Notes under the pieces: generated by a model | Database searches by the model: none | Seen by the model: the letters and a program-made list of their open reading frames with translations, nothing else | Told to the model about the DNA's origin: nothing | From: an uncultured Gammaproteobacteria bacterium | Lineage (GTDB): Bacteria; Patescibacteriota; Microgenomatia; CAZETR01; Amesbacteraceae | Length of the DNA: 39,952 nucleotides | Reading direction: 5' to 3' | Assembly (NCBI GenBank): GCA_964358085.1 | Contig: CAYHNU010000003.1 | Coordinates: 1 to 39,952 of the forward strand | Shown: piece by piece, positions 6,601 through 34,616 of the stretch | Position numbering within the stretch: position 1 is the first letter of the stretch | Layout of the letters: every line of letters starts with the position of its first letter | Position numbers and translations under genes: made by a program

Positions 6601-7095
6601 GAGTCCTGCCGCAACGTCATCACTAAAAACGGAAATCTTCCGATGTGCTTCTGCAAAGTATCGGATTTGGGTAAAAGCGTCGAAGCTGTAGTTTTCCCCA
6701 AAACTTACGCCGCTACCCCCGGCGTCTGGCAACCGGATAATCTCGTGCTTCTAACGGGCAAAGTAGAAATGCGCGACACTTCTGCCGAAGAAGACATCAT
6801 TGGCGCCCCCGAGCCGGACGTAACCATCATCGTCGACTCCGCCACCATTTTTACCGGCGAATCTACTATGAACTATGAACCAATAACTAATAACCCAGTT
6901 ACTATCGAGATTCCCAAAGGTCTACTGCAGACCAAACTGGTCGCTCTCAATTCTCTACTTCAATCGCATCGCGGCCAGACCCCTGCCAGCTTGATCTTTT
7001 ATAACGGCTCCTCCTCAAAAACCCTGCCCCTGCCGTACGGCCTGGATTGGACCCCAAGTTTGCAGGACCAAATCCACGAGTTGTTAAAAACCTGA
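3613..7095 (+). CDS. dnaE: DNA polymerase III alpha subunit
   Basis: PHP domain FVHLHVHTEYSLLDG, RGSAAGSLV, FERFLNP..PDIDID, YGFNKAHAASY, C-terminal OB fold. Confidence 0.98.
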   Translation: MSAKFVHLHVHTEYSLLDGLSKISKLIRRSKELDMPAVALTDHGVMYGAVEFYKECTKEGVKPLIGMEAYVVNRNHTEKAGKGENNHLLLLAANNEGYQNLMHLSTIAHLEGFYYRPRFDKETLTKYSQGLICTSACAKGEIGQLLAENSYDKAREAAEWYQHLFADRYYLEIQRHQNEDYFDSVKDNPRLLDKLKSFAKIEKIWGDGIVKLSRDLGIRLVATNDAHYLEKTDASAQDALVCISTGKNTSAIDRLRYIDTPTFHLRSPDEMANIFPDLPDSLSNTVKLAEKCDVKIELGKWYFPNIDLPAGQTATQALQDLARTKTDAIHRKRLEYELEVICSKGYAPYFLMMADLVNWCTDHNIITNTRGSAAGSLVSYVTGITTVDPILYDLPFERFLNPFRPSPPDIDIDVADDRREEIISYITQKYGSDKVAQICTFGRMLARAAVRDVARVQGHPYAFGDRLAKVIPIGSQGFPMSIERALKESPELKTMYDSDLEVKETVDLARQIEGNARHVSVHAAGMVVSPQPMINYSPLQLEPKGTKIITQYEFHACEEIGLVKFDILGIRNLSILGAARDLIENLHHITLDLKHLPMNDKATFAMLTRGETMGVFQLGGSGMTKWLKELKPNRLEDIMVMIALFRPGPMANIPEYIARKNKKSPVTYLHPKMADYLDKSYGILVYQEDIMFTGLSLAGYTWETIDKLRKAIGKKLPKEMAQQHEVFVEGCIKTSGMTQEAAEKIWELFVPFQGYGFNKAHAASYGIVAYQTAYLKAHYPVEYMTALLTAESGDTEKIVEAIEECRRIKIPVLPPDINSSDVAFAVDDKSIRFGLSAVKNVGEAAISSILSARADGPFTTFTDFCLRVDSQKVNKKVLESLIKAGAMDQFGKRAALLAALDKIRELGTSISKLKSSGQITLFAPSEQSDHSDKLPNIEEFEKSIMLGMEKELLGFYLTEHPHAEKLAQLGQLITHRISELPSGNLSGMRVTIGGIIESCRNVITKNGNLPMCFCKVSDLGKSVEAVVFPKTYAATPGVWQPDNLVLLTGKVEMRDTSAEEDIIGAPEPDVTIIVDSATIFTGESTMNYEPITNNPVTIEIPKGLLQTKLVALNSLLQSHRGQTPASLIFYNGSSSKTLPLPYGLDWTPSLQDQIHELLKT
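6862..6897 (+). repeat. 36-nt heptad-built element, copy 1 (in dnaE linker)
   Basis: tctactatgaactatgaaccaataactaataaccca; identical to 34158-34193. Confidence 0.92.
7079..7093 (+). repeat. 15-bp direct repeat, left copy (3' end of dnaE)
   Basis: agttgttaaaaacct, identical at 8350-8364. Confidence 0.85.
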
Positions 7096-7154
7096 TTTAT
7101 TTAAATGCCTTTAAACAGTAAATAGTTGACCTGGTAGATGGTAGAATGGGTGGT

Positions 7155-8351
7155 GTGACAGATAAGATAAATCAGCGTGGGGATGAGGGCATGACCAGGA
7201 GAGAGTTTATTAAGTTGTCTACTATTGAACTAAGCGCGTTAGCGTTAAATTTAAATAGGCCATCTCCAGTAGAGCTTGGATCTTTTGAGAATAATCATAT
7301 TTATAGAACGGCTGAAGGGCTAATTCCAGCCATAGATTATCAAGTTAGTTCGGGAGACAGCATTACAAGGATTGCAGATCGATACAACACTCAAGCCTCA
7401 TTAATTATCACGGCTAATAAATTAACAGATCCAGACCGCATATATCCTCATCAATGGCTTAAAATCCCCAAATATCCAAAAGAGCCGATGTTGTTTATAC
7501 TCGAATCCAAGGTTATTCGCCACATCATTCAACCAGAAGCCACAACGTATAGTATTTCCCGTCTTTATGGTGTGCCTGAACTCCCCGTAGTCGTGTCTAC
7601 ATTTGCTCGGTTTGGACGGCGAAGAGGGCTGCCCGCAGGAGAAACTTTGACATTACACGCGATGAAACCAACTCACATCGTTCCTTTGGACTACCAACCA
7701 GCAGATGATAGGTCACTCTCTTTTGATGCTGTAAATAGTCTTGTCCAAAGGGTCGCCAATGTGTTTTCTTACTATTTGGGCGGACCGGACGGACTTTCAT
7801 ATTTAGTTTCTCAAGGAATACAAATGGGCAAAGGATCTTCCGGGTTTATCCCCCCAAATCATATTGATCTCAATCTGCAAGATACGGTTCAGGAGGGTAT
7901 CATCCTTGGACAATCAGCACATGAAATGTGGCACGAGGTGCCTTTCCCCTGGTGGAGTGCAGGTGTAGACGAGGGAACGGCGGAGTGGGTGTCTATAGAA
8001 TGGGTTGTTGGAACCAGACGGTTGAATCAGTTATTTGCTAGTTCCACACAATGGAATCAAGAAGGATATTATGATTTTGTTAACACCCCTCAGTTACGAG
8101 AAAGAACATTCAATGCGGAACAATATGATTTTGAAAATCGCACCTTGGCGTATGAGGCATGGAGACGGATAGAAGAGCGATACCCTGGGGTTACCGCTTA
8201 TCTTACCAATACGTGGGCAAAAACTGACGAAGGAAAACGTGGATCTCACGATGCAACCCCCATCTCTATAGTGAGTCAATTGGTGAAAGATGATTTTGGA
8301 GAAGAAGCTTGGACATTTATTGAAAATCAACATATTCTTTTTGCGCTCTAG
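7155..8351 (+). CDS. LysM-domain protein with HExxH metallopeptidase-like C-terminal domain
   Basis: LysM YQVSSGDSITRIADRYN..NKLTDPDRIYPHQWLKIP, degenerate second LysM, AHEMWHE...DEGTAEW; twin-Arg-like TRREFIK. Start uncertain (7146/7155/7191); TGgTAGAAT lies 7 nt before GTG 7155. Confidence 0.7.
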   Translation: MTDKINQRGDEGMTRREFIKLSTIELSALALNLNRPSPVELGSFENNHIYRTAEGLIPAIDYQVSSGDSITRIADRYNTQASLIITANKLTDPDRIYPHQWLKIPKYPKEPMLFILESKVIRHIIQPEATTYSISRLYGVPELPVVVSTFARFGRRRGLPAGETLTLHAMKPTHIVPLDYQPADDRSLSFDAVNSLVQRVANVFSYYLGGPDGLSYLVSQGIQMGKGSSGFIPPNHIDLNLQDTVQEGIILGQSAHEMWHEVPFPWWSAGVDEGTAEWVSIEWVVGTRRLNQLFASSTQWNQEGYYDFVNTPQLRERTFNAEQYDFENRTLAYEAWRRIEERYPGVTAYLTNTWAKTDEGKRGSHDATPISIVSQLVKDDFGEEAWTFIENQHILFAL

Positions 8352-8364
8352 TTGTTAAAAACCT
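8350..8364 (+). repeat. 15-bp direct repeat, right copy
   Basis: agttgttaaaaacct followed by aa, recreating a dnaE-like end LLKT*. Confidence 0.85.
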
Positions 8365-8387
8365 AACTTAACTGTAAAATAGGTCGT

Positions 8388-8442
8388 AATATCACCTGGA
8401 CATCCCCCTCTCTTAGATTAAGAGAGGGGATAGGGGTGAGTT
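8388..8442. repeat. Intergenic palindromic element, copy A
   Basis: Core cccctctctta-gat-taagagagggg with outer tcacc/ggtga arms; related inverted copy at 28647-28705. Confidence 0.8.
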
Positions 8443-8450
8443 ATTTATAA

Positions 8451-8786
8451 ATGGCCATTTCAGCATTAATCAAAGAAGTACAAGTCCATGTTGGCGACAT
8501 CGTCCGCGTGCACACCAAAATTATTGAAGGAGAAAAAGAGCGCATCCAGATTTTTGAAGGCATGATCTTGGGCATTCGCGGTCGGGGAGACAACCGCACT
8601 TTCACTGTCCGTAAGATTTCCTCTGGCAATATCGGCGTAGAACGTATTTTCCCCTTTATTTCTCCCTGGATTATCAAAGTTCAGGTCAAAAAACCGGGGA
8701 AAGTCCGTCGTGCTAAACTAACTTATGTCCGTGCACAATCTTCCCGTCAAGTTAGCCGTATTACTGCTGTTAGCCAGCCTGCTTAG
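8451..8786 (+). CDS. rplS: 50S ribosomal protein L19
   Basis: [51 protein letters not shown]. Confidence 0.97.
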
Positions 8787-10374
8787 ATTCTGGAATTTAG
8801 GGACACTCCCCAACGGCCTGCATTGGGACGAAATGGATACCGGCTACCAGGCCTATTCACTTTTTAGAACAGGCAAGGATTACTTTAGTAATCCTCTGCC
8901 TATGTTCCCCCATTCTTTCGCCGATTATCGCACTCCTATTTTCATCTATTCAGCCGTGCCCTTTGTAGCTTCTCTTGGACTATCTGCCGTTTCCGTTCGT
9001 CTGGTGGCCGCCGTCTGGGGACTGCTGGGTATTGTCCTGATATACATTTTGGTACGTGATTGGCTGGCTCCGCTGATTTTGGCTCTCTCACCCTGGCACC
9101 TGCAATATTCCCGTAAATCCGTAGAGACCATGAGTTTAACCACCACTTTTCTTTTAGGTTTGGTTTGTTTCCAACGCGGTCTTCGGCAACCGCGATGGCT
9201 GATTTTTTCTGCTCTCGGTTTTGGTCTTGCCATGACAGCCTATTCTCCCGGCAAACTCTTTGTGCCTTTATTTCTAGTCATCCTAATCTTCATAAATCGT
9301 AAATCATTAGTCCTGATTCAGCGTAAATATTTACTTACATCGGTCTTAGTATTAGCAGCTTTTGGACTTTTAGTTTTTGGAGACGCCATATTTGGAAAAT
9401 CCGGTACCCGCTTCCACGATGTAGCCATTTTCACCGACCCCACCATTTCCACAGAAATTAATTATCAGCGCCAGCTATCTGCCGAATCTTCAGGCCGGCC
9501 CCGCACGGTGGGCATGAGTCCCAGCTTGTTCGATAAACTATTGCACAACAAGCCCCAAGTCTGGATCGCCTCTTTTCTTACTAATTACCTGCGTACTTGG
9601 GGAACTGATTTTCTCTTTATCAAAGGCGATCCCGAACCTCGCCACTCGCCATCCCGCGATTCCATCGGCATGCTGCACATGATCGAAATCGTGCCATTCC
9701 TCGTCGGTCTTTTTGTTCTACTAAAAACCAATAACCAACTAACCAGGCTACTAGGAGCATGGCTGCTTCTTGCTCCAATTCCGTCGGCCTTAACCCGCGA
9801 TGGCGGAGTTCACGCCGCCCGCCTGCTTATTCTCTTCCCCGCCCTGGCCTGGACCATCACTCTCGGTCTCCGCCGGTTTTCCCGTCCGCTATTAACTATT
9901 TACTATTTACTATTTACTATCTCCAGTTTCTATATTTTTGGTTATTATTTCAGCCACTACCGTTTCGAAAGCGCCAAACCCTACCAGTGGGGTTATTCCG
10001 ATTTGATCAAAACCGCCCTGTCCAGGGAAGGCCAATACGACCGGGTAATTATCGACGTGGCCCGCGATTCACCTCTCATGGCCTATTTATTCGTGACCAA
10101 ATTTTCTCCCCGCCGACTTCAGGCCCTCTATCCGCTTCGGGAGCAAATTCTGACAGGGGATAGCCGGGCCTTAGTTTTTGGCAAAATCTGGCTTCTTCAG
10201 CCAGGTGGTCGTGAATGGGTGAACATCACCCTTCCCGGCCGCAATCTGATTCTAGCCTCCGCCGATCAATCTCAACTGGACCGCATTCCCGGCGCTACTC
10301 GTATCAACTATCCCGACTCTCTCGCCGCCTTCTACGTCTTCGAAAAATCCTCACCAGTTGCAATTAGTAAGTGA
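8725..10374 (+). CDS. ArnT/PMT-like (GT-C) membrane glycosyltransferase
   Basis: [34 protein letters not shown], many hydrophobic segments. Confidence 0.8.
9895..9920 (+). repeat. In-frame heptamer array (ACTATTT)x3 + ACTAT
   Basis: Encodes TIYYLLFTI within a predicted TM segment. Confidence 0.85.
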
Positions 10375-10393
10375 ACATATTATAACTAATTTA

Positions 10394-11476
10394 GTGATCA
10401 AGGCCCTGGCAGTAATAATCATCCTAATATCCTCTCTTCTTGTCTTGCGTAGAGTAGTTCTTCGCCGGGGTGCAGTTACCCAAGTAACTCCGACTCCCCA
10501 AACCAACCAACCGTCAAAATTTACATTAAAGAAAACAGGAGTCACTCCTGCTCCTCAAACCAAGTCCACCGCCAATCCTTTCGGAGTCATGATTTCCGGA
10601 AACACCTCGCAGATCAAAGCCCAGACCGCGGTTAAATTAGGCGCCAAGTATTACCGCCCCATTTCAGTATTTCTAGATAAATGGTCAGGTGCTTGTGCAG
10701 AGTGCGATGCAGCGGTTTCCTCCGGGTTAAAACTTATATTGACCATCAGAAATAATGGCGGTCAACAACAACCCACCACCCCTCCCACAGACTGGAATAA
10801 ATACAAGAGTACATTGTCCCAAATTGTAGATAAATATAGGCCTGAAGTCCTCGTGATTGAAAATGAAGAAAACTCTCAAGCATTGTTTTATACCGGTACC
10901 TCCCAGCAATATCTCCAAGAACTCAAAGCCGGCTGTGAAGTAGCCCACCAAAAAGGGATTAAATGTGCAAACGGGGGTTTAGTCAGTTCACTAGTGGCCT
11001 CACTTGTAGCCGATAGCTATAAACAGTCAGGAAATCAAAATAAAGCCAACGAGTACCTCACCCGAACATTGGGATCTAAAGATCCATCCATTACGACCTC
11101 GATTAATTCGCCCAAAGCTCAAGAACAAATCGCCAGAGGCAAAGAGCTTGTGGCCGGTTATAAAGCAACCGGCGCAGATTTCATGAACTTTCACTGGTAT
11201 ATTGCAGACACCAACGCCCTTGGTGAGGCTGTAAGTTACCTCCGCACTGCGTCAGGCCTTCCTGTCATGACCAATGAAGTCGGTCAACAAAAAAACACCG
11301 ATCCCAACCAAGTAACCAACATCATGCAAAAGATCGTCGACTTGAAATTACCGTACGCAGTCTGGTTTAGTATCGACGTTCAAGGCTACGGTGGTGCCAC
11401 CGGACTGGCAGACAAAGACGGCAATCTCCGCCCCAACGGCGACGCCTACGCCTCCTTCATCAGTTCAAACTACTAG
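10394..11476 (+). CDS. Membrane-anchored putative clan GH-A glycoside hydrolase
   Basis: N-terminal TM, Pro/Thr linker, IENEEN (acid/base-like), NFHWY, VMTNEVG (nucleophile-like); start uncertain (10358 vs GTG 10394). Confidence 0.6.
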   Translation: MIKALAVIIILISSLLVLRRVVLRRGAVTQVTPTPQTNQPSKFTLKKTGVTPAPQTKSTANPFGVMISGNTSQIKAQTAVKLGAKYYRPISVFLDKWSGACAECDAAVSSGLKLILTIRNNGGQQQPTTPPTDWNKYKSTLSQIVDKYRPEVLVIENEENSQALFYTGTSQQYLQELKAGCEVAHQKGIKCANGGLVSSLVASLVADSYKQSGNQNKANEYLTRTLGSKDPSITTSINSPKAQEQIARGKELVAGYKATGADFMNFHWYIADTNALGEAVSYLRTASGLPVMTNEVGQQKNTDPNQVTNIMQKIVDLKLPYAVWFSIDVQGYGGATGLADKDGNLRPNGDAYASFISSNY

Positions 11477-11480
11477 TTTT

Positions 11481-11657
11481 TTAGGAGTCGCTTGAGGTAT
11501 CGACAGTAGGTTTTGGTTTTGGTTCTATATTTGTAGTATAGGCCCATTCGCTTAATTGCTGAAGTGCCCAAACAGTATCTCTCCACCAACACATTTCGAC
11601 ATTACAATTTTTTGGGTCACACATTGCCTGTTTTGCTTCACAAAATTGTTCCGCCAT
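11481..11657 (-). CDS. 58-aa Cys-rich orphan protein (not in ORF track)
   Basis: MAEQFCEAKQAMCDPKNCNVEMCWWRDTVW...; upstream TTGTAA-17bp-TAAAAT with extended TG, 9 nt before ATG. Confidence 0.55.
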   Translation of the reverse strand: MAEQFCEAKQAMCDPKNCNVEMCWWRDTVWALQQLSEWAYTTNIEPKPKPTVDTSSDS

Positions 11658-11709
11658 AGGAGAGCTATTTTAACAAAACATCGCACGATTTACAACTATA
11701 GGTTATTTG

Positions 11710-11781
11710 TGACTCGTGCGAGAATCGAACTCGCATTTGGTGGATGAAAGCCACCTGGCCTAACCATTAGCCGAACGAGCC
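11710..11781 (-). tRNA. tRNA-Glu(UUC)
   Basis: Acceptor GGCTCGT/ACGAGTC, anticodon arm GGTGG-ctTTCat-CCACC, GTTCGA T-loop. Confidence 0.93.
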
Positions 11782-11787
11782 GTAATG

Positions 11788-11859
11788 TGAGGCGGCTGGG
11801 ACTCGAACCCAGAACCCACAGCTTAAAAGGCTGGTGCTCTACCATTGAGCTACCGCCCC
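11788..11859 (-). tRNA. tRNA-Lys(UUU)
   Basis: GGGGCGG/CCGCCTC acceptor, TAGCTCAATGGTAGAGC D-arm, CAGC-ctTTTaa-GCTG, GGTTCGAGTCC. Confidence 0.95.
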
Positions 11860-12101: not shown

Positions 12102-12147
12102 AGCTTAAAAGTCCGGCTAGCCGGATCTACCATTGAGCTACCGCCCC
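12099..12147 (-). pseudogene. Duplicated 5' half of tRNA-Lys(UUU) carrying a palindrome
   Basis: GGGGCGGTAGCTCAATGGTAGA-[TCCGGCTAGCCGGA]-CTTTTAAGCTGTG matches the intact tRNA except for the 14-nt palindrome (12112-12125) replacing GCACCAGC. Confidence 0.88.
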
Positions 12148-12165
12148 TCACTGTCTAATTATACC

Positions 12166-15883: not shown

Positions 15884-17807
15884 GTACGAAAACACCGCCA
15901 AAGAACTATATATAGAGATGTTAAAAAAATTGGCGAATACTCCATATCCAAAATGGAAAATAATTACCGACACCGCCAATGGTACCCAAACCCAAATTAT
16001 CAAAGACTTGCTCTTAGACCTAAAACTGGACTTTATCTGCACCGGCGATTGTGATATTCAATCACCGGAATTTATTCCCCGGGACACCGAAGCCCCCGGG
16101 GCCTTCGCCGAACTGGCCCGTCAGGTACTGCTCCAAAAAGCCGATCTGGGCTTCGGGTTCGACGTAGATGGGGACCGGATAATTTTTATAGATAATCAAG
16201 GTCGGTATCTTCCCGGCGATTATTCTTGTAGTTTAATTGCCCAAAGTGAAAAATCCAAAAACGTCGTCACCCCCATTAGTACCAGCTCGGTTATTGATTC
16301 AATTGGTAAAACTGTTCACCGCACTCCCGTCGGAGCGACACACGTGATCTCGAAAATGAAAGAGGTCGGTGCCGCATACGGTTTTGAACCCAACGGTGGA
16401 GGCATAAGCTCCGAAATCTTTTACGGCCGCGACGGCGGCACGACTTTAATCAAAATGCTCAATTTACTAAAAAAAAGCAAAAAAACATTGGCCGAGCTGT
16501 ACGACTCATTACCTAAATATTATTTATTCAGGGATAAAATTGATTGTCCGTTTGATAAATACGACTTCATTTATAACACCGTTCGTGAGAAATACTCCCA
16601 AATAAATGATCTGGACGGCATAAAAGTAGATTTAGGTCACGAAGAATGGATTTTATTTAGAGGGTCTGGTAATGCTCCCGAATTCCGGGTTTTTGTCCAA
16701 AGCCCGGACGAAAAACGGGCCCAAAAGTTAGGCCGGGAGGGACTTGATTTAGTCAGGAGTTTATTGAATGGGGTCCGACCCCATGCAACGGTCCAAAGAC
16801 TAGACACCTTAAATATTCTGGGATCAATCCAAGCCCTGCCGGATCAATGTGCCCAGGTCATCTCTGAAATAGCCCAAGCTTCAGTCCCTCCCAGCTGCAA
16901 TCTAGTAAACAATATTATTATTTCCGGAATGGGCGGTTCAGCCTTGGGTGGCCGGGTCATAGCAAGTCTGGAACGTCAAACTCTGCGGGTTCCCATCACA
17001 GTTTCTACTGAATATCACTTACCAAATTTTGCCAACGAAAAAACTCTGGTAATTATCTCCAGTTATTCAGGGGAAACAGAAGAAACCTTGACCGCTCTAG
17101 CCGAAGCCCGTTCCCGTGGATGTCAAATTTTCGTGCTTACTACAGGGGGAAAATTAGGCGAGTTGGCCAAACAATTTAGCCTTCCGCACTATCTTTTGAA
17201 CCCCCAACACAATCCTTCCCGGCAACCGCGTATGAGTTTAGGCTACGAAGTTACGGCCATGTTGGTCCTTTTGGCCCGTTGCCAGCTTATTCACCCCTTA
17301 AAAGAACTTTCCCGTCTTCCCAATTTTCTTCGATCTCGTCAGCCAGATTTATCTAGCATCCAGCATTTAGCATCTAGTCTCGTCGGTAAAATCCCCGTCA
17401 TAATAGTGAGCGAACATCTCAAAGGAGCCGTCCACGCCATGAAAAACCAACTCAATGAAAACGCCAAAACTTTTGCTGTGGTTTTCGATTTGCCCGAAGC
17501 CAATCACCATTTAATGGAAGGGCTGGCTCATCCGCCCTCCAATCCCGAAAATTTAGCGGTTGTTCTGGTCGACTCGCCCCACTATCATCCCGAAGTCCGC
17601 AAGCGCTACCCGCTTACCCGAAAAATTATTGAAAAACACCATATCCCCATCTTCGATTTTCCTCTGGCTGGCCCCAACCCGGTTTTCGAAGCTTTAGACG
17701 TGATTCAATCCGGCGCGTACCTGGCATATTACTTGTCCCAAGAATACGGCATTGACCCCGGCCCCATTCCTTGGGTAGACTGGTTTAAGGATGAACTCCG
17801 AAATTAA
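15816..17807 (+). CDS. Phosphohexomutase domains II-IV fused to bifunctional PGI/PMI (SIS)
   Basis: DTANG, FDVDGDRI, GFEPNGG, FRGSGNAPEFRV; then SGMGGSALGG, SYSGETEET, NENAK, PEANHH. Real start uncertain. Confidence 0.85.
   Translation: MMVRRSPKPMNWKSSSSSTPIIKYENTAKELYIEMLKKLANTPYPKWKIITDTANGTQTQIIKDLLLDLKLDFICTGDCDIQSPEFIPRDTEAPGAFAELARQVLLQKADLGFGFDVDGDRIIFIDNQGRYLPGDYSCSLIAQSEKSKNVVTPISTSSVIDSIGKTVHRTPVGATHVISKMKEVGAAYGFEPNGGGISSEIFYGRDGGTTLIKMLNLLKKSKKTLAELYDSLPKYYLFRDKIDCPFDKYDFIYNTVREKYSQINDLDGIKVDLGHEEWILFRGSGNAPEFRVFVQSPDEKRAQKLGREGLDLVRSLLNGVRPHATVQRLDTLNILGSIQALPDQCAQVISEIAQASVPPSCNLVNNIIISGMGGSALGGRVIASLERQTLRVPITVSTEYHLPNFANEKTLVIISSYSGETEETLTALAEARSRGCQIFVLTTGGKLGELAKQFSLPHYLLNPQHNPSRQPRMSLGYEVTAMLVLLARCQLIHPLKELSRLPNFLRSRQPDLSSIQHLASSLVGKIPVIIVSEHLKGAVHAMKNQLNENAKTFAVVFDLPEANHHLMEGLAHPPSNPENLAVVLVDSPHYHPEVRKRYPLTRKIIEKHHIPIFDFPLAGPNPVFEALDVIQSGAYLAYYLSQEYGIDPGPIPWVDWFKDELRN
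16764..16788. repeat. REP-like palindrome at the PMM/PGI domain junction
   Basis: ttg-a-atggggtc-c-gaccccat-g-caa, translated as LNGVRPHA. Confidence 0.65.
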
Positions 17808-17835
17808 CCTAATTTCTAATTAACCTAATTAATCT
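17802..17835. repeat. 9-mer array, left arm of inverted repeat around four-helix gene
   Basis: aattaacct aatttct aattaacct aattaatct. Confidence 0.8.
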
Positions 17836-17840
17836 AAATA

Positions 17841-18230
17841 ATGACTGAATATAATCTGGAAGAAAGAACAGCAAAATTCGGCGAGAACGTTATTCTTTTT
17901 TGCAATCGATTACCCAGGAACGAAGTGACAAAGCCACTTATCACTCAACTAGTCAAGGCAGCTACCAGTGTAGGAGCTAATTACGGCGAGGCAGACGACG
18001 CTGAAAGTCGTGACGACTTTAAGCATAAAATCGGAATTAGCAAGAAAGAAGCCAGAGAATCAAAACACTTTTTGCGGATGATTGCCACAGCTCTACCAGA
18101 ATTCAAAAATGAAGCAAGGATACTTTGGAGTGAAGCTAAAGAATTAAATCTGATATTTAATGCAATTTACAAAAAGGTCGGGTCTAAGAAAATTGGTCAT
18201 TCCTTAGACCAATTAGGTCAATTAGAATAA
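17841..18230 (+). CDS. Four helix bundle protein (23S rRNA IVP / bAvd-like family)
   Basis: LEERT..F, QLVKAATSVGANYGEA, S..DFKHKIGISKKEARES.HFL, EAKELNLIF. Confidence 0.9.
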   Translation: MTEYNLEERTAKFGENVILFCNRLPRNEVTKPLITQLVKAATSVGANYGEADDAESRDDFKHKIGISKKEARESKHFLRMIATALPEFKNEARILWSEAKELNLIFNAIYKKVGSKKIGHSLDQLGQLE

Positions 18231-18241
18231 TTAGGTCAATT
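18211..18241. repeat. 9-mer array, right arm (inverted)
   Basis: aattaggtc aattagaat aattaggtc aatt; reverse complement closely matches 17802-17830. Confidence 0.8.
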
Positions 18242-20500
18242 ATGCAATATATCAAATGGTTTAAGGATTTATCCAAAGAGGATATCGCCATCGCTGGCGG
18301 TAAGGGAGCGAATTTAGGCGAGCTGACCCAGGCCGGCATTCCCGTTCCACCCGGTTTCGTCGTCTTATCTTCGGCTTACTATAAATTCCTGGAAGACAAC
18401 AAACTCCGTCCCCAAATCCACCGTATTTTAGCCACTTGTGATGTTCTGGATCCGGCCCAGCTGGAACCCGCTGCCAAAAAAATTCAAAAGCTCATGGCCG
18501 CCGCCACCGTACCCGCAGAAGTAGCCCGAGACATATTTAAATCTTACGCCAAGCTCGGTTCCAAGTCCGCCGTGGCGGTCCGCTCTTCCGCCACTGCCGA
18601 GGATTTGCCGGAAGCCTCCTTTGCCGGTCAACAAGAATCGTATCTAAATGTCATCGGCGATGCCAACGTAGTAACCAAAGTCAAGGCCTGTTGGATTTCC
18701 CTTTTCGGTGCCCGGAGTATTTTTTACCGGGCCCAGCAGAAATTCGACCATTTCAAGGTCGGTATCGCCGTTCCGGTGCAAACCATGATCCAGTCCGAAA
18801 TTTCCGGCATCATTTTTACCGTTGACCCCATATCCGGTGACCGGGACAAAATCATTATCGAAGCCATTTGGGGATTAGGGGACTATATTGTCCAGGGAGT
18901 AGTCACTCCCGATCATTTTTCCGTGTCCCGCGCCACCAACAAAATCGTTGACAAAAATATTTCTACCCAGGAAATTATGGAAATCAGAAACCACCAAGGA
19001 GTTAAACAAGTCAAGGTCCCATCCCGTTTGCGCTCCGTTCAAAAAATTTCCGACGCTTCAGTTATTAAGCTGGCAGAATACGGCCAAAAAATTCATCAAC
19101 ACTATTTCTTTCCCCAAGATATCGAATGGGCTATCGCCAAAGGAAAGATTTATTTCACTCAATCCCGCCCCATAACCACACTATCGAATAAAACCGTTAC
19201 CGAATCACCGAACACCGAACACCGAGAACCGATATTGAAAGGCGCCCCTGCATCACCAGGTATTATTTCCGGCCCAGTCAAAATAATTTTAGATATTAAA
19301 AATATCGGCCAGGTCAAAAAGGGCGACATTATGGTTACAGACATGACCACTCCGGATTTCGTCCCCGCCATGAAGCGGGCCGCCGGAATCATTACTAATC
19401 GCGGCGGACTTACATCTCACGCTGCCATCGTTTCCCGCGAATTGGGTGTTCCTTGCATAGTCGGTACTACCGTGGCCACCCACACTCTCAAAGACGGTCA
19501 AATTGTCACTCTCAACGGTTCCACCGGCGAAATTTTCAAAGGCGCCCTCCATCTTCCTTCCGTCTCTCTGACCGCTCCGCAATCCGAAAACCGACTTCCG
19601 ACTAACCTGAAGACTGCAACCAAGCTTTACGTCAATCTCGCCGAAACAGAATTAGCAGATAAAATCGCTTCCGAAAACGTGGACGGTGTAGGTTTATTAA
19701 GGGCTGAATTTATGATCGCCGGCATAGGCACCCACCCCAAGAAGCTCATCGCCGACAAAAAAGAAGAGGAATTTGTTTCCAAGTTGACGGAGGGTCTGGT
19801 CACTTTTTGCCGCGCCTTCCATCCCCGTCCCGTCATTTATCGGGCTACTGATTTCAAAACCAATGAATACAGGTCACTTAAGGGCGGCCAGCTCTACGAA
19901 CCCGAAGAATCCAACCCTATGCTCGGATTCCGCGGCGCTTACCGCTACATCACCCACCCCGAAGTTTTTCAGCTGGAATTAGAAGCCATCAAGCGGGTGA
20001 GAAACCGTCACAAACTCACTAATTTGCATCTTATGATTCCCTTCGTCCATACTCCGGCGGAAATGTTAGAGGTCAAAAAACAAGTCACAGCTTCCGGTCT
20101 AATCCGCGGCAATTCCTTCAAGTTATGGATGATGGTCGAAATTCCCAGCAACGTCATTCTCTTGGACGAATTTATAGACGTAGGCATTGACGGCGTGTCT
20201 ATCGGTAGTAACGATCTCACAATGCTCATTATGGGAGTCGACAGGGATAATTCGGAAGTAGCTCCGGTTTTCGATGAGCGCAATCCCGCCGTCCTTTGGG
20301 CTTTGGAAAAAATTATCAAAACTTGTCTGAAACGCAACATCACTTGCGGTATCTGCGGCCAAGCTCCCTCCCAATACCCGGACCTAGTCGAAAAGTTAGT
20401 TTCCTGGGGCATCACCAGCATCTCCGTTAACCCCGACGCTATTGCTCGCACCCGGGAACTTGTTTACAATAGTGAATTAAGATATGTCCGCCAAGCTTAA
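18242..20500 (+). CDS. ppsA: Phosphoenolpyruvate synthase
   Basis: GGKGANLGEL, VAVRSSATAEDL..ASFAGQQ, GGLTSHAAIVSRELG, GVGLLRAEF, SIGSNDLT. Confidence 0.96.
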   Translation: MQYIKWFKDLSKEDIAIAGGKGANLGELTQAGIPVPPGFVVLSSAYYKFLEDNKLRPQIHRILATCDVLDPAQLEPAAKKIQKLMAAATVPAEVARDIFKSYAKLGSKSAVAVRSSATAEDLPEASFAGQQESYLNVIGDANVVTKVKACWISLFGARSIFYRAQQKFDHFKVGIAVPVQTMIQSEISGIIFTVDPISGDRDKIIIEAIWGLGDYIVQGVVTPDHFSVSRATNKIVDKNISTQEIMEIRNHQGVKQVKVPSRLRSVQKISDASVIKLAEYGQKIHQHYFFPQDIEWAIAKGKIYFTQSRPITTLSNKTVTESPNTEHREPILKGAPASPGIISGPVKIILDIKNIGQVKKGDIMVTDMTTPDFVPAMKRAAGIITNRGGLTSHAAIVSRELGVPCIVGTTVATHTLKDGQIVTLNGSTGEIFKGALHLPSVSLTAPQSENRLPTNLKTATKLYVNLAETELADKIASENVDGVGLLRAEFMIAGIGTHPKKLIADKKEEEFVSKLTEGLVTFCRAFHPRPVIYRATDFKTNEYRSLKGGQLYEPEESNPMLGFRGAYRYITHPEVFQLELEAIKRVRNRHKLTNLHLMIPFVHTPAEMLEVKKQVTASGLIRGNSFKLWMMVEIPSNVILLDEFIDVGIDGVSIGSNDLTMLIMGVDRDNSEVAPVFDERNPAVLWALEKIIKTCLKRNITCGICGQAPSQYPDLVEKLVSWGITSISVNPDAIARTRELVYNSELRYVRQA
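19193..19234 (+). repeat. In-frame ACCGAAC-type heptamer array in PpsA linker
   Basis: accgtt accgaatc accgaac accgaac accgaga accgata (TVTESPNTEHREP). Confidence 0.8.
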
Positions 20501-24714: not shown

Positions 24715-25389
24715 GTGGCCAGTAGAACCACTCCCCTAGTAACTAACGAGTATTACCATGTCTTTAATCGCGGAGTTGCTCGCCAGCCTATCTTTTCCCT
24801 ACGACATGATTACCAACAAGCCCTTCTCGCAATTGAATATTACCGTTTTTCAAAACCTCCTATCAAACTGTCACGCTTCAAAACTCTAGCTCAAGGCGAA
24901 AAAAATAAATTAATGTCTTCCTTAAATCAGGACCACCCCAAATTAACAAAAATTATTAGCTACTGCTTCATGCCTAATCATTTTCACCTGTTGCTTCGTC
25001 AAGTTGCCGACGACGGTATTTCAAAATTTGTTGGGCAACTTAGCAATAGCTATACACGCTATTTCAATACCAAGCATTCTCGCGTCGGTCCGCTGTTTCA
25101 AGGACCATTTAAATCTGTTCATGTCGAATCTGAAGAACAACTAATACATTTATCCAGGTATATTCATTTAAATCCCTATGTTTCTTCAGTAGTTCGAGAG
25201 ACTGAATTAACCTGCTATCCCTGGTCATCCTATCGGGATTATCTCAAGGGCGGCTCGAATTTCGTAGATTTGTCGCCAGTATTGTCTCGTTTTAAATCAA
25301 TATCCGAATATCAATTATTTGTTTCCAATCATGCAGATTACGCCCGTGAGTTAGAATTCATCAAACACCTCACCCTAGATACCGGCTAA
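24715..25389 (+). mobile_element. REP-associated tyrosine transposase (RAYT, Y1 HUH)
   Basis: YYHVFNRG, YCFMPNHFHLLL (HUH), GPLFQGPF, RYIHLNP, YPWSSY; flanked by REP palindromes. Confidence 0.9.
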
Positions 25390-26395: not shown

Positions 26396-28348
26396 ATGTT
26401 TAAACTCAAATCTCCATACAAACCGACTGGCGATCAACCGGATGCAATTAAAAAATTGTTAGCTGGGCCAGACCAGCAAGTTTTGCTGGGAGTAACTGGC
26501 AGTGGGAAAACATTTACTATAGCTAATGTCATACAAAAAGTTCAGAAGCCAACTTTAGTTATCTCGCACAACAAGACTTTGGCCGCCCAACTATACCAGG
26601 AATTCAGGGATTATTTTCCGGATAACGCCGTATCCTATTTCGTTTCCTATTACGATTATTATCAGCCAGAAGCCTACATTCCCCAATCCGATACCTATAT
26701 CGAAAAGGAAACAGACATCAACGACCAGATAGACATGCTCCGTTTGGCCGCGACCACCAATTTATTGACCAGAAAAGACGTCATCGTCGTGGCTTCTGTT
26801 TCATGCATCTACAATCTCGGTTCTCCGGCCGAGTACGGTAAGACTATCTTAGAGCTCACCCCCGGTCTTAAAGTAACCCGGGACCAGATCTTCATGCGCT
26901 TAAACGACCTCCAATATTCCCGCTCCGATTACGGCTTTCATCGGGGCACCTACCGCGTCCGCGGCGAAACTATCGACATTTTTCCCGCATATGCAGATGT
27001 CGCCATCAGAGTCGCCCATGACAGTCATAAAATTATCAGCCTGGACAGGTTCGATGCCCTGACAGGCGATCTGATTAGCCACGAAAAAAATATAACCGTT
27101 TATCCGGCTAAACATTATTTGGCAGCCAAAGATAATCAAGCAGAAGTCTTTAAGCAAATCCGCCACGATCTGGAACTTCAGGTGTCTAAGTTTAAATCCG
27201 AGGGAAAAATGCTCGAGGCTCACAGAATTAATCAGCGGGTTAATTACGACCTAGAAATGATAGCTGAGCTGGGTTACGTCAACGGTATTGAAAACTATTC
27301 CCGCTATTTCGATGGCCGCCAAATCGGTGACCCGCCATATTCTTTGATGGATTATTTTCCCAAAGATTACCTGTTAATAGTTGATGAGTCACACATGACC
27401 ATCCCGCAGATCCGCGGGATGTATAACGGCGACCGCTCTAGGAAGCAAACCCTCATAGATTACGGGTTCAGACTGCCGGCCGCTCTGGACAATCGACCGC
27501 TCAAGTTTGACGAATTCATGCGTCGTACAGGCCGGACTATATACTTATCTGCCACTCCGGACGAATGGGAAATTTCTCAATCCGGTAATCACGTCGTAGA
27601 ACAGCTTATCCGCCCCACCGGCCTCGTCGACCCCTCCATTTCTATTCGTTCAACTTCCGGTCAAATTCAAGATCTAATTTCTAATCTCCAATCTCTAATT
27701 TCCAAAGGCCAGCGAGCTCTGGTAACTACTCTCACCAAACGCATGGCCGAGGATTTATCTAGCTACTTGGCCGAACAAGGATACAAAGTCCATTATCTGC
27801 ATTCCGACGTGGATACTCTGGAACGCCTGGATATCTTAGATGATCTGCGCAGGGGTATTTATGACGTCATCGTAGGCATTAATTTGCTGCGTGAAGGTCT
27901 GGATCTACCGGAAGTTTCCCTAGTCGCCATTTTAGACGCCGACAAAGAAGGCTTTTTGAGATCCCGCACTTCACTTATTCAAACCATGGGTCGGGCCGCC
28001 CGGCACGAAGAGGGCCAGGTTATCATGTACGCAGACAAAATTACCAATTCCATGCAAGCTGCCATAGATGAAGTCAGCCGCCGCCGCCAGATCCAGCTAA
28101 ATTACAATACACTACACAACATCACCCCTAAATCCATAACCAAAGCCATCCGTGAGCGTATTGTGGAAAAAGAAATCGAACCTCCAAACATCGACATGTC
28201 CAAAGTCAATCAGCTTACTCCCGAAGATCACACCAAACTTATCAAGCTTATGACAAAACAAATGAACTCCGCCGCCAAAGCCCTGGAATTCGAAGAAGCC
28301 GCCCGTCTCCGCAACCGCATCCGCGAAATCCAACACCTATTAAATTAA
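26396..28348 (+). CDS. uvrB: Excinuclease ABC subunit B
   Basis: PTGDQP, LLGVTGSGKT, YFVSYYDYYQPEAY, DESH, GINLLREGLDLPEV, FEEAARLR; start at MFKLKS. Confidence 0.98.
   Translation: MFKLKSPYKPTGDQPDAIKKLLAGPDQQVLLGVTGSGKTFTIANVIQKVQKPTLVISHNKTLAAQLYQEFRDYFPDNAVSYFVSYYDYYQPEAYIPQSDTYIEKETDINDQIDMLRLAATTNLLTRKDVIVVASVSCIYNLGSPAEYGKTILELTPGLKVTRDQIFMRLNDLQYSRSDYGFHRGTYRVRGETIDIFPAYADVAIRVAHDSHKIISLDRFDALTGDLISHEKNITVYPAKHYLAAKDNQAEVFKQIRHDLELQVSKFKSEGKMLEAHRINQRVNYDLEMIAELGYVNGIENYSRYFDGRQIGDPPYSLMDYFPKDYLLIVDESHMTIPQIRGMYNGDRSRKQTLIDYGFRLPAALDNRPLKFDEFMRRTGRTIYLSATPDEWEISQSGNHVVEQLIRPTGLVDPSISIRSTSGQIQDLISNLQSLISKGQRALVTTLTKRMAEDLSSYLAEQGYKVHYLHSDVDTLERLDILDDLRRGIYDVIVGINLLREGLDLPEVSLVAILDADKEGFLRSRTSLIQTMGRAARHEEGQVIMYADKITNSMQAAIDEVSRRRQIQLNYNTLHNITPKSITKAIRERIVEKEIEPPNIDMSKVNQLTPEDHTKLIKLMTKQMNSAAKALEFEEAARLRNRIREIQHLLN
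27673..27707 (+). repeat. In-frame TCTAATY-type heptamer array in uvrB
   Basis: tctaatt tctaatc tccaatc tctaatt tccaaag (LISNLQSLISK). Confidence 0.85.
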
Positions 28349-28596: not shown

Positions 28597-28615
28597 AAGC
28601 TGGATTATACCACTC

Positions 28616-28644: not shown

Positions 28645-28646
28645 AA

Positions 28647-28705: not shown

Positions 28706-28710
28706 TACGT

Positions 28711-31551
<2,841 letters not shown>

Positions 31552-31864
31552 AAATCTTTCCATCCCTTATTAATTTTGTCCCTATCATTATCAGGCACGT
31601 CTTCATGTAGCAAGTCGATGTACGTTCTCTTATTTTCATAAGTCAAAGATATTTGCACTCGGGAAGGTTTACTTTGTTTTCCGCTCCAACAGTGGGCAAC
31701 CAGTGATTTTTTGGGTTTAACCTCCAAATTTTTAAACCGCACCATTTCTCTCAATATTCTTGTCGGACCAGCCGGATTCATCATTGCATCCCACACTTTT
31801 CCCGCACCCGCGTGAACAATATAGCTCTGTCGAATTACGCTCACTATCTATATAATAACACAAA

Positions 31865-33532
31865 ATGACCAAAAAAATATTAGTATTTATTGGTATTTAT
31901 TGGTATCTATTCCCGAGTCCGGCCTCAGCCTCGGGAGAATTCTACATCAAACAAAATGTTGATTATAAATTCGACGCGTTGGGCCGCTCCACTATTACCT
32001 TCAATGTATCCCTAACCAACAAAACGGCTAACTACTACGCTTCCAAGTACGAACTAGAACTAGTAGGGGAGGACCCCAAAAATGTTACCGGGCGCGACTC
32101 AGTCGGCCCTCTTAAAATTATCACCTCTCCCACTGCCGCAGATACTACCCGTATTGTGGCCAACTTTAACGATGTGGTCGCGGGCCCCGGAAAATCTTTA
32201 TCTTTTACTCTCCAATATCAGGGCAAACCTGCCGTGCACAATGGCCAAGTTTGGGAAATAAACCTCCCCAAGCTTTCCCGTCCTGCGACCGTAGACGAAT
32301 ACACTCTGAACCTGATTGTTCCGCTCTCCTTTGGTCAACCGGCTTATTTATCTCCTCCTCCCGCGTCTTCTGACGGCAACAGATATGTTTTCACCAAAGA
32401 CCAACTTTCCAAGGTGGGGGTGGTGGCCGCTTTTGGAAATTTTCAAACTTTTTCTTTCCGCCTCAAATATAAAATCAACACCCCTTCTCAAATTGCGTTA
32501 CCCGCTGATACCGCCTATCAAAGAATTTTTTTTGATTCAATCACCCCTTTACCTAATTCCGTTACCGCTGACGCCGACGGCAACTGGCTAGCCGGTTTCA
32601 ATCCCGGTGAAATTGTCGTCACCGGCCAGGCAAATCTGCTGTTAGAACCTCTTTCGTCATTTACTGACTCACCTCCGGAAAAATATCTTTTCCCCACAGC
32701 TTACTGGCCGGCCGACAATCCGCAAATTAAAGAGCTGGCTAAGTCCTTAAAAACTCCCCGGAAAATTTACGATTACGTAGTGGAAAACCTTGAATACGAT
32801 TACGCCTCCGCCGCGTCCCTCACTGCCACCCGCAAAGGCGCTCTCGCCGCTCTTTCTTCCGGCTTAGGCGTCTGCACCGAATTCACCGACCTGTTTATTG
32901 CCCTGGCCCGGGCCGCCGGCATCCCTGCCCGTGAGGTAAATGGCTATGGCTATACTACGGACCTGCGTTTGCGCACCCCCCTCCACTCTTGGCCCCAATA
33001 CTGGGATGCTACCCGCCAGGTTTGGGTCAGTGTCGATCCCACCTGGAGCCGCACCACTGGAGGGATAGACTATTTCTCCAAATTAGATTTTAACCACCTG
33101 TCCTTTGTCACCCACGGCTTGTCCGATTCTTTACCCGATTTCTCCGCTACTGATATTCAAGTCAGTTACGGATCGTACCACGAGTACCCCGCTACACCTC
33201 TTATTACTAAATGGCAATCGCCCTTATTTATTCTTCCGTTTATTCCCAGCACCTTCCGTTTGCGAATCACCAACCCCAACCCTCAAGCTGTCTATTCCAA
33301 CCCCGTAACACTACCTCCCTATGGATCAAAGGTCCTGACAGTCCGGTACACTCTTATCCGTCCTTTTGATTTTAGTCCCAAATCCGTAACCCTCATAAAT
33401 ATGACGTATAATATCCCCACGACTTTATTTCTTCCCTGGCAAATCGGCTTTGCTATCCTTATCTCACTTACCCTTATCGCCGGGAGTCTATATCTTCAAA
33501 AACGCTTCCGGCCAGGTTCTATACGTCGGTAA
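31865..33532 (+). CDS. Exported/membrane-anchored transglutaminase-like protein
   Basis: GVCTEF..LFIALARAAGIPAR.V.GY, HSW, DPTW (Cys-His-Asp); signal peptide and C-terminal TM. Confidence 0.88.
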   Translation: MTKKILVFIGIYWYLFPSPASASGEFYIKQNVDYKFDALGRSTITFNVSLTNKTANYYASKYELELVGEDPKNVTGRDSVGPLKIITSPTAADTTRIVANFNDVVAGPGKSLSFTLQYQGKPAVHNGQVWEINLPKLSRPATVDEYTLNLIVPLSFGQPAYLSPPPASSDGNRYVFTKDQLSKVGVVAAFGNFQTFSFRLKYKINTPSQIALPADTAYQRIFFDSITPLPNSVTADADGNWLAGFNPGEIVVTGQANLLLEPLSSFTDSPPEKYLFPTAYWPADNPQIKELAKSLKTPRKIYDYVVENLEYDYASAASLTATRKGALAALSSGLGVCTEFTDLFIALARAAGIPAREVNGYGYTTDLRLRTPLHSWPQYWDATRQVWVSVDPTWSRTTGGIDYFSKLDFNHLSFVTHGLSDSLPDFSATDIQVSYGSYHEYPATPLITKWQSPLFILPFIPSTFRLRITNPNPQAVYSNPVTLPPYGSKVLTVRYTLIRPFDFSPKSVTLINMTYNIPTTLFLPWQIGFAILISLTLIAGSLYLQKRFRPGSIRR

Positions 33533-34616
33533 AGCCAACCGGCTGCGTCAGCGCGTCCGTTCATATTTCCAACCCCCCATAAAACTGGGCCCAAAAACCG
33601 CCCAATTAGTGTCCCATATCGCTTCAGTCGAACACGTTGAAGTCGGATCAGAAATTGAAGCCCTGCTCCTGGAATCCAGCCTCATTAAAAAATTCCGCCC
33701 CCACTACAATATCGCCTCCAAAGACGGCACCTCTCCCTACTATATCCACATCACCCGCGAAAAATACCCCAAGCCCGTTATCAATCATCTGCCCCAAAGC
33801 GCCATCGCCGGTCCTTTCCTCTCGAGGCTGGTAGCCAGAAAAATCCTCCGCAGCTTTCGCCGCATCGCCCCCTACCATACCGAGAGTCCGTGTTTTTATC
33901 GCCATCTGGAACTCTGCCACCCTTGTCCAGACGATCCCCACACCAGCACCATCGCATATCAAAAAAACATCACTCTTCTTAAAAAACTTCTCCGAGGCCA
34001 ATTTAAACAAGTACTGCGTCAAGCCGTCAAAACCTTAGATTTCGAGACAGCCGCCGCTTTACGTGATCTGTTGCACCAACCCACTCCCCCGGAAGAGTAC
34101 GTCACCAACCCGAATCTTTTAGCCGATCGCCGTCAGGAAGCTTTGCAATCTTTGCGGTCTACTATGAACTATGAACCAATAACTAATAACCCATTACATC
34201 GGATCGAGTGTTTTGACGTGGCCAATCTCTCCGGCAGTGCAGTCACCGGAGCAATGACTGTGGCCATAAACGGCCAGCTTTCACCACAACATTATCGCCA
34301 TTTCACTCTTTCGTCTGGCAACGACGACGTCGCCAGACTTAAAGAAATGCTTACCCGCCGCCTCAAGACCGACTGGCCAACTCCCGACCTTTTAGTCCTT
34401 GATGGCGGCAAGTCACAGCTATCAATAGTCAACTGGAGTATTCCCACCATTGCCTTGGCCAAAAATGAAGAGATTATTTACACCACCGACGGTCAGAAAA
34501 TTAAACTCGACCGCCGCCACCCGGGTTTACAGCTTCTGCAGCGCCTGCGTGACGAAGCCCACCGTTTTTCCCGTCGCTTGCACCACAAACATCGAAGTGC
34601 AATAATCAAGCCATGA
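33450..34616 (+). CDS. uvrC: Excinuclease ABC subunit C (shortened, no C-terminal HhH evident)
   Basis: LPLSPGVYIF..VLYVGKA..LRQRVRSYF, EALLLE, RIECFDVA, PDLLVLDGGKSQ, RLRDEAHRF. Confidence 0.92.
   Translation: MLSLSHLPLSPGVYIFKNASGQVLYVGKANRLRQRVRSYFQPPIKLGPKTAQLVSHIASVEHVEVGSEIEALLLESSLIKKFRPHYNIASKDGTSPYYIHITREKYPKPVINHLPQSAIAGPFLSRLVARKILRSFRRIAPYHTESPCFYRHLELCHPCPDDPHTSTIAYQKNITLLKKLLRGQFKQVLRQAVKTLDFETAAALRDLLHQPTPPEEYVTNPNLLADRRQEALQSLRSTMNYEPITNNPLHRIECFDVANLSGSAVTGAMTVAINGQLSPQHYRHFTLSSGNDDVARLKEMLTRRLKTDWPTPDLLVLDGGKSQLSIVNWSIPTIALAKNEEIIYTTDGQKIKLDRRHPGLQLLQRLRDEAHRFSRRLHHKHRSAIIKP
34158..34193 (+). repeat. 36-nt heptad-built element, copy 3 (in uvrC)
   Basis: Identical to 6862-6897. 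Confidence 0.92.

Follow-up and report, generated by a model that had tools for sequence, protein, structure and literature searches.

Short heptamer arrays within dnaE, uvrA and uvrC of a Patescibacteriota genome are probably solo arms of a dispersed, strand-polar repeat family resembling 23S rRNA intervening sequences

Why should three unrelated housekeeping genes carry, in the same reading frame, almost the same 33 nucleotides (nt)? The question is raised by a 39,952-nt stretch of DNA (contig CAYHNU010000003.1 of assembly GCA_964358085.1, hereafter the window), in which dnaE, uvrA and uvrC each contain one copy of a short element built of 7-nt units. The window is contig C3 of the genome under study, G000, whose assembly comprises 693,223 bases in 66 contigs with 45% G+C. 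Our analysis indicates that the three copies are probably solo arms of a dispersed and strand-polar family of heptamer mini-arrays, similar to the intervening sequences (IVSs) of 23S rRNA genes, and are translated as passengers of their hosts. The three copies and a degenerate relative are as follows.

6862-6894, + strand: solo array in dnaE, TCTAC plus four heptamers, 33 nt; identity with the uvrC copy continues to 6897
29791-29823, + strand: solo array in uvrA; C replaces T as the first letter of units 1 and 2
34158-34190, + strand: solo array in uvrC, in the linker preceding the RNase H-like domain
9717-9743, + strand: degenerate family member in a PMT_2 glycosyltransferase gene, in a different reading frame

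The first-pass annotation, made from the letters alone, had described these copies accurately. The 36-mer at 6862-6897 in dnaE is letter-for-letter identical to that at 34158-34193 in uvrC, and the uvrA version at 29791-29823 shows two T-to-C changes over 33 nt. TCTAC is followed by the 7-nt units YATGAAC, YATGAAC, YAATAAC and TAATAAC, and all three copies lie on the coding strand and read S-T-M-N-[Y/H]-E-P-I-T-N-N. The suspected degenerate relative is also real, with TCTAC at 9717-9721, two good units and one 8-nt unit ending at 9743; its frame, worked out by hand, differs from that of the three canonical copies, and it falls below the substitution limits of our genome-wide family scan. The similarity of the three copies is not expected by chance: the 36-mer with up to 3 mismatches had two matches in the window and a 27-nt core with Y at the variable place had three, and neither pattern had any match in 100 dinucleotide shuffles. 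The final CCA of the 36-mer probably belongs to the flank and not to the element; it is the conserved proline codon of UvrC orthologs.

The element occupies approximately amino acids (aa) 1084-1094 of DnaE (3613-7095), past the OB fold; aa 361-371 of UvrA (28711-31551), within the UvrA_DNA-bind region (302-398); and aa 237-247 of UvrC (33450-34616), between the UVR motif (190-208) and the RNase H-like domain (247-373). The frames of all host genes remain open through the elements. An Rfam scan of the window returned only five tRNAs, with no match on the arrays. UvrC itself is short (388 aa) and is followed by an overlapping 100-aa open reading frame (ORF) lacking a Pfam match (33450-34915); the usual C-terminal part of the protein may be split off or lost.

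The earlier proposal of a tiny dispersed element that reaches tolerant sites in housekeeping genes by copying or templating held up, with about 25 loci in the genome and sister sites that are filled or empty. Under a family rule of four Y-A-N-N-A-A-C units with at most 2 substitutions, 26 copies were found in G000 and 38 in its congener G002. The 26 copies reduce to 25 loci, C12:53-80 and C17:13768-95 being the two overlapping ends of a single locus. Most copies in G000 begin with (T)CTAC and consist of exactly four units. The contig ends C12:1-100 and C17:13720-13817 overlap at one YATGAAC-type array whose last unit differs between the two ends, and strain variation within that array seems to have broken the assembly at this point.

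Hosts with roles in replication or repair were DnaE, UvrA, UvrC, RecJ, a UDG-family protein, RecG and a UvrD/PD-(D/E)XK helicase. Others belonged to the envelope, namely two GT2, one GT4, a PMT_2 and two Wzy_C (O-antigen-ligase-like) proteins, or were of diverse kinds (EamA, PrgI, a MerR-headed giant protein, SpoIID in antisense, LepA and TyrRS). Since the hosts are functionally mixed, the replication and repair theme noticed in the window is no property of the element, and an enrichment of repair genes among the hosts is unproven. One Wzy_C-type gene (G000 C2:23003-23170), with orthologs in G002, G003 and G005, carries three family arrays, two of which form a 17-bp hairpin inside the coding sequence that is kept in four genomes. 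In folding comparisons this inverted pair alone folds (z -3.0), and the single arrays of dnaE and uvrC fold no better than shuffles (z -0.9 to +0.9).

To follow the element among relatives, we compared orthologous sites. A 27-mer with at most 2 mismatches was present in 6 of 41 related genomes including G000, and its reversed control in none; it occurred in two of three congeners, with no match in G001, and among the named records that carry the element are metagenome-assembled genomes (MAGs) of Candidatus Amesbacteria, Gottesmanbacteria and Daviesbacteria, which marks the lineage as Microgenomates-like. The dnaE site is filled in G000, G002 and G005 (at the dnaE C-terminal locus) and empty in G003 and G004. 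The uvrA site is filled only in G000, with a net gain of 27 nt, and the element is absent from the orthologs of G001, G002, G004 and G005. The uvrC site is filled in G000 and in G005, which belongs to a different genus; it holds 18 other nt in G001 and G002, and an AGAAATT-type heptamer array at the same place in G004.

The same turnover was observed genome-wide. Nine of the 15 ungapped array pairs between G000 and G002 were identical at 24 or more of 28 positions and four at 16 or fewer, and the flanks of these pairs were 77% identical (57% at third codon positions). Two antisense pairs were identical at 26/28 and 27/28 positions, which suggests, for these two, that arrays antisense to their genes are no less conserved than sense ones and so speaks against a role in RNA. 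Compared with G000, the 26 comparable copies of G002 comprised 11 that were conserved, 8 with indels and 7 that were replaced without change of length. Most same-length replacements were another heptamer family in register, such as CGAATAC-, CTTGAAY- or TGAGCAC-type units where the other genome has YATGAAC-type units, and the sites in RecG, GT4 and PMT_2 genes showed such same-length swaps from the G000 side too. That orthologous sites are filled, empty or occupied by another heptamer family of equal length argues for copy-and-replace and against local slippage, and the uvrA gain, which is specific to G000 and already compound, also counts for copying. The refutation named beforehand, that orthologs would show a gradual, independent origin at each site, was borne out in part, in that the orthologs reveal every site to be a long-standing repeat slot whose content turns over.

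Arrays of this family were also found as the ends of larger cassettes. The G002 gene at C1:144640-145002, a match to the PF05635 four-helix-bundle profile, is bracketed by inverted YATGAAC-family arrays, and in L127, an unrelated MAG, a PF05635 gene is bracketed by inverted YATGAAC/YAATAAC-family arrays. A source copy flanking a four-helix-bundle gene, as the first-pass annotation had envisaged, was therefore found in the sister G002 and in L127, and not in G000. PF05635 matches numbered 5 in G000, 4 in G002, 4 in G001, 3 in G003 and 12 in G005, and four of the G000 genes have inverted short tandem-repeat arms (flanks read by eye). The window contains one such cassette.

17804-18241, + strand: IVS-like cassette whose ORF (17841-18230) is a PF05635 four-helix-bundle gene (23S rRNA IVS / Avd-like), recognized by profile match and flanks

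Its arms are inverted short tandem arrays with a period of 8-9, CTAATT-type at about 17804-17840 and AATTAG-type at about 18209-18241. The cassette sits between a PGM/PGI fusion gene and PPDK and is absent from the orthologous junction in G002, and the site of a cassette on contig C11 of G000 holds a solo TTAAAAA-type array in G002. The IVS-type arrangement of a PF05635 ORF between inverted arms is thus found in the family, and the three window copies are solo arms outside that arrangement. Public contigs cover 17804-18241 at many times the surrounding depth and contain many alternative joints skipping about 370-390 nt, so that the cassette or its arms seem common to many loci or organisms in the samples.

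An exact search of a species collection with a 24-letter pattern, for which about 0.5 chance matches were expected by estimate, gave 14 loci, including MAGs titled Gammaproteobacteria, Eisenbacteria, Dactylococcopsis and Prevotella and a Mucilaginibacter isolate. Several of these loci are ORF-less array hairpins in non-coding DNA, and one (L047) is an array hairpin of the YATGAAC family within a 23S rRNA gene, next to a group I intron. PF05635 genes were present in 5 of 5 of those other-phylum genomes; among 14 PF05635 genes examined in these five, 10 had an array of period 7-9 in at least one flank and 5 in both. In Rfam searches of 7 other loci, significant scores went only to rRNA, tRNAs and a group I intron; the rest was sub-threshold, and no array family was matched. 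No 23S rRNA gene was detected in G000.

Two of these settings deserve description. The L047 stretch (1-3472, from a MAG titled Gammaproteobacteria) has two heptamer arrays within the 23S gene and two just beyond it, with one IVS-like hairpin. Six related phage contigs (L120-L125) carry the array next to an iteron-like hairpin, in the order of two direct and two inverted GTTGAAC/GTTCAAC repeats, a CATGAAC-CATGAAC-CAATAAC-CAATAAC array and a terminator-like hairpin; this phage locus could be an origin or an operator.

The arrays are strongly polar. In 25 of the 26 copies in G000 and 36 of the 38 in G002, the AAC strand coincides with the locally C-rich strand, irrespective of gene direction, and the loci examined from G003 and G005 show the same polarity; the exceptions include the inverted partner of the Wzy_C-gene hairpin. 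Six G002 copies that are antisense to their gene still lie on the C-rich strand, which indicates that polarity follows the chromosome and not transcription. Orientation was lopsided within individual families as well (for example 19:0, 15:1, 9:0, 8:0 and 7:0). Consensus units on the C-rich strand have TGA rather than TCA in a ratio of 45 to 6 in G002 and 33 to 14 in G000, against a G002 background that runs the opposite way (7,742 TGA vs 13,830 TCA), and the polarity is therefore not mere composition. GC skew was very strong (0.08-0.33 per contig) and kept one sign throughout each of 10 G002 contigs; dnaA (G002 C1:137 kb) showed no switch either, and no replication origin was located. In G002 and the window, the C-rich strand carries about 61% of the coding bases. 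This skew resembles the monotonic, chromosome-wide GC skew of related Microgenomates, for which excerpts of PMC7143001 propose replication in one direction.

The YATGAAC/YAATAAC arrays are one family among about 100 period-7 mini-arrays per genome. A scan for arrays of at least 4 units found 96 of period 7 in G000, 106 in G002 and 0 in shuffles, and other periods gave 0-37 arrays in the same scan of the two genomes. The period-7 arrays have a median length of 34-35 nt and a maximum of 49, occur about once per 7 kb and include units such as CTTGAAY, ATTGAAT, ACCGAAT, ACTGAAT, TTAGAAA, TTAAAAA and TTTGCAC. In G000, 87 of the 96 lie within ORFs of at least 100 aa. With head-to-tail 7-nt units and a genome-wide period-7 excess, they qualify as heptanucleotide tandem repeats. 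They are imperfect and have 4-6 units, and all host frames are open, for which reasons a phase-variable contingency repeat was rejected. A TGAAY x3 pattern had 23 matches in G000, 17 in G002 and 2 in G001, the last being no more than in the control. The same-family genome G006 had 77, and array load varies more than ten-fold among close relatives. Further arrays in the window, all from the period scan, are listed here.

1666-1708, + strand: period-7 array, CTCAAAT-type, in an amidase gene
9885-9927, + strand: period-7 array, TATTTAC-type, in the same PMT_2 gene as the 9717-9743 copy
19203-19235, + strand: period-7 array, CACCGAA-type, in the PPDK gene
27672-27702, + strand: period-7 array, ATCTCTA / ATTTCTA-type, in uvrB

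If the three copies are solo arms, new copies would arise by templated copy-and-replace of about 30 nt into tolerant loops and linkers, and the copying may be bound to one of the two DNA strands, with replication as the simplest link. The copies would do nothing for DnaE, UvrA and UvrC and would be translated as hydrophilic loop insertions. Five intact RAYT-like HUH transposases and the four-helix-bundle protein are speculative candidates for the enzyme, and one of the former is encoded in the window.

24715-25389, + strand: RAYT-like HUH Y1 transposase gene with intact HFH and YIHLNP motifs; candidate machinery only

Genomes of the genus have 3-6 Y1_Tnp genes each, of about 225-250 aa and with HFH and YIHxNP motifs, and G000 has five paralogs. 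In NCBIfam they match REP_Tyr_transpos best, with a score of 43 bits where the cut-off is 80. The window gene lies upstream of the uvrB-uvrA-uvrC cluster, and a Y1_Tnp match in G005 lies about 6 kb from its uvrA, which suggests a vertically kept, domesticated gene. By eye, TGAAY arrays were present in 1 of 6 genomes without Y1_Tnp and in 24 of 35 with it, a comparison of kin genomes and one unit type from which nothing is concluded. Reverse transcriptase (PF00078) was not found in G000, G001, G002 or G003 and was found once in G005; a diversity-generating retroelement was rejected on its absence from G000-G003.

Several observations weigh against this explanation. Movement was not observed, and the comparison of filled with empty sites revealed no defined ends, target duplication or target motif; insertion and replacement are inseparable, because the net length change differs per site. 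Apart from one hairpin in G000 and two in G002, copies have no opposite arm within 80 nt, so that we can only infer that solo arms descend from cassettes. YATGAAC-type arms are absent from all 5 PF05635 genes of G000, and the site orthologous to the G002 cassette at C1:144640-145002 is empty in G000. No arrays lie within 400 nt of any of 11 RAYT-like genes examined in G000 and G002, and Y1_Tnp occurs in 35 of 41 genomes of the class, including array-poor ones. Among the listed Logan contigs none bridges the uvrC copy, and the contigs stop and restart inside it at 34164-34187. The chromosome-wide polarity could equally mean a selected DNA function, and so could the better conservation of 9 of 15 orthologous arrays than of their flanks and the recurrence of the same compound array in other phyla. 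Taking these points together, we hold with moderate confidence that the copies are solo arms carried as passengers.

A selected function is the most probable of the alternatives. The arrays could be KOPS- or Chi-like polar signals in the DNA, read by a translocase, a replisome component, a primase or a recombinase; one orientation would then be kept on a possibly unidirectionally replicating chromosome, and the arrays would lie in genes since spacer DNA is nearly lacking. The orientation on the C-rich strand, the TGA-type units that oppose background composition, the conservation of arrays relative to their flanks, the density of about one array per 7 kb, the monotonic skew of related Microgenomates and the lack of a skew switch in the G002 contigs and at dnaA would all be in line with such signals. 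One reader protein, however, would not be expected to tolerate many unit families that are interchangeable at one site, and the sharp difference in abundance among congeners, with 23 and 17 TGAAY x3 matches vs 2 in G001, speaks against it as well. The same arrays moreover serve as inverted cassette ends and hairpins, that is, in both orientations. Imperfect arrays of 28-45 nt are also unlike the 8-nt polar signals that are known. We therefore consider polar signals unlikely.

It is also improbable that each array arose in place by 7-nt replication slippage, with few solutions available under composition and stop avoidance and no copying involved. Stop avoidance, which belongs to our own explanation as well, does account for the shared frame and much of the compound structure. 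Three consecutive YATGAAC units place TGA in every sense frame, and among the 44 sense copies of G000 and G002 the in-frame unit had TGA in 0 of 52 cases, its place being taken by ATA (24), TCA (9), CGA (8) or AGA (3), whereas the other two phases retained TGA in 38/72 and 41/52 units (79/124 together). The sole non-coding locus has three pure units. A survivorship filter thus accounts for the common frame and for the change of the third unit from ATGAAC to AATAAC, and the frame, which had been taken as a sign of design, is forced, as the remaining two sense frames hold stops. Given the canonical type, two identical 33-mers need just four matching choices of Y. Only period 7 is enriched, the sites are old repeat-bearing linkers in all relatives, and in many prokaryotes heptanucleotide repeats have been reported to outnumber other long simple repeats (Mrazek 2007, as cited in excerpts of PMC4679880).

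The fourth unit, however, is AATAAC even though TGA would be permitted there, and because it is not forced, common descent is still indicated by the canonical order. In uvrA the copy was gained in G000, and 4 orthologs show no simpler precursor. Length differences among orthologous arrays were 6, 9, 15 and 27 nt and never 7 or 21, so a change of unit number by slippage was not borne out between orthologs. Whole arrays were swapped for families abundant elsewhere in the genome while the flanks were still 77% identical, and other phyla carry the compound array in rRNA, phage contigs and non-coding DNA, free of any frame constraint. Strong polarity is not predicted by slippage either.

At the RNA level, the mRNAs of a replication and repair regulon might use the arrays as binding sites for a protein that recognizes AAC or GAA at 7-nt intervals. 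A sense bias in G000 (20 of the 22 copies located in ORFs of 100 aa or more), the unstructured, A/C-rich and G-poor nature of the arrays and the seven repair or replication hosts would suit this idea, and the TAACTGA repeats of Beggiatoaceae have been proposed as post-transcriptional sites (PMC4679880, in excerpt). But the six antisense copies of G002 keep the chromosomal orientation, which makes the sense bias secondary, the hosts are functionally mixed, and no Rfam family matched the arrays in the window or at 7 other loci. A binding site in RNA, as the first-pass annotation had suggested, is hence very improbable, with orientation set by the chromosome strand and not by the gene.

The peptide tag offered by the same annotation fared worse. 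The same peptide in three proteins, and related peptides in other hosts, might be read as a selected tag for localization, modification or interaction, but STMN(Y/H)EPITNN is the product of the only stop-free frame, some copies are non-coding, and the near-identity of the copies extends to synonymous sites. Other members encode LRTMNHEL or STINHELTN, and antisense copies encode an unrelated VISYW-type peptide (VISYWLLVH). A selected tag is scarcely credible.

The public sequencing record bears on whether the copies are real. Eleven DNA runs hold the stretch, and no RNA run is on record. The comparison with Logan contigs spans 19.9 kb, with the dnaE copy outside. Contigs of runs X1 and X5, both of which may be source samples, bridge the uvrA copy with no differences. 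The breaks in the uvrC copy are what one expects of a 36-nt exact repeat in a k=31 graph. No indel is listed at the arrays in the public contigs, which drop rare variants. An assembly artefact, in which a repeat was mis-joined into three genes, might draw on the contig breaks inside the uvrC copy and on the break of the G000 assembly itself at another family member, but its probability is practically negligible, given that 33-36 nt should be much shorter than a read of typical length, that the uvrA copy is bridged, that independent assemblies have the element at the same codons of dnaE (G002, G005) and uvrC (G005), and that all host frames are open.

How, then, do the arrays compare with known repeats? 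The published IVS of Coxiella, which is described as selfish, is 428 nt long, carries an S23p ORF and has a terminal stem of 28 bp (excerpts of PMC4990558), and PF05635 resembles Avd of diversity-generating retroelements (PMC10053308). The cassettes described here share with 23S rRNA IVSs their size (about 430-460 nt), the PF05635 ORF, inverted ends that pair over about 28 nt and a sporadic, present-or-absent distribution, and one array hairpin lies inside a 23S rRNA gene. In contrast, the cassettes lie between protein genes and not in rRNA, and their arms are made of tandem 7-9-nt units; arms also occur solo, about 100 per genome, mostly in coding sequence and with one polarity, and the three window copies have neither an ORF nor a partner arm.

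A second likeness is to TAACTGA repeats, which occur in Beggiatoaceae, cyanobacteria and Bacteroidetes and, as forward repeats, close all three frames (excerpts of PMC4679880). On the same excerpts, TAACTGA and STRR heptamer repeats share with our arrays the short sets (2-6 units) of a stop-containing 7-nt unit, a patchy cross-phylum distribution with suspected horizontal spread, and constraint on copies within ORFs. The TAACTGA repeats there are, however, mostly intergenic and just upstream of start codons, whereas 87 of 96 arrays here are in ORFs with the in-frame stop edited out, and the chromosome-wide polarity found here has no counterpart reported in those excerpts. A term search within PMC4679880 found none of the words S23, intervening, IVS or four-helix.

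Other systems match in single features. REP/REPIN-RAYT systems, as excerpted in the literature, have abundant, lineage-specific repeats of 20-40 nt in singlets and inverted doublets, as here, and intact, vertically inherited RAYT-like HUH genes are present in these genomes; the arrays, in contrast, are not palindromes, are mostly intragenic, do not lie beside RAYT-like genes and come in many unit families.

Rickettsia palindromic elements are selfish repeats of about 100-150 bp that are palindromic, inserted in frame into housekeeping genes and translated. In-frame translated insertion is shared with the arrays, which are instead tandem heptamers of 28-45 nt. Single-strand transposition of the IS200/IS605 type shows an orientation bias set by the replication strand and uses HUH Y1 enzymes. 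A strong one-strand bias and HUH Y1 enzymes are likewise found here, but the arrays lack subterminal hairpins and contain no transposase, and a fixed target tetranucleotide was not identified. A miniature inverted-repeat transposable element was rejected, as filled vs empty sites show no target-site duplication or inverted ends.

That the three copies are probably solo arms of one dispersed family brings together, in one small genome, three separately described and unexplained things: the heptanucleotide excess of bacteria, the 23S IVS with its Avd-like ORF and the chromosome-wide strand asymmetry of some Microgenomates. The literature searched, which included few subscription journals, held no paper joining heptamer repeats with the candidate phyla radiation (CPR) or with PF05635/IVS arms. 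We tentatively raise a bolder possibility, that a strand-specific, replication-coupled copy-and-replace system, run by RAYT-like HUH and/or Avd-like proteins, writes heptamer cassettes of roughly 28 nt into fixed slots, including slots in essential genes, and that IVSs, STRR/TAACTGA repeats and in-gene arrays might be one cross-phylum mobile system free of reverse transcriptase. The natural filled, empty and swapped sites, together with defined strand substrates and two candidate protein families, give a handle on how such repeats move. For annotation, identical short peptides in unrelated CPR housekeeping proteins can be translated repeat DNA. If the link holds, the IVS would be no oddity of rRNA but the visible part of a family of very small mobile repeats that are able to live in coding genes.

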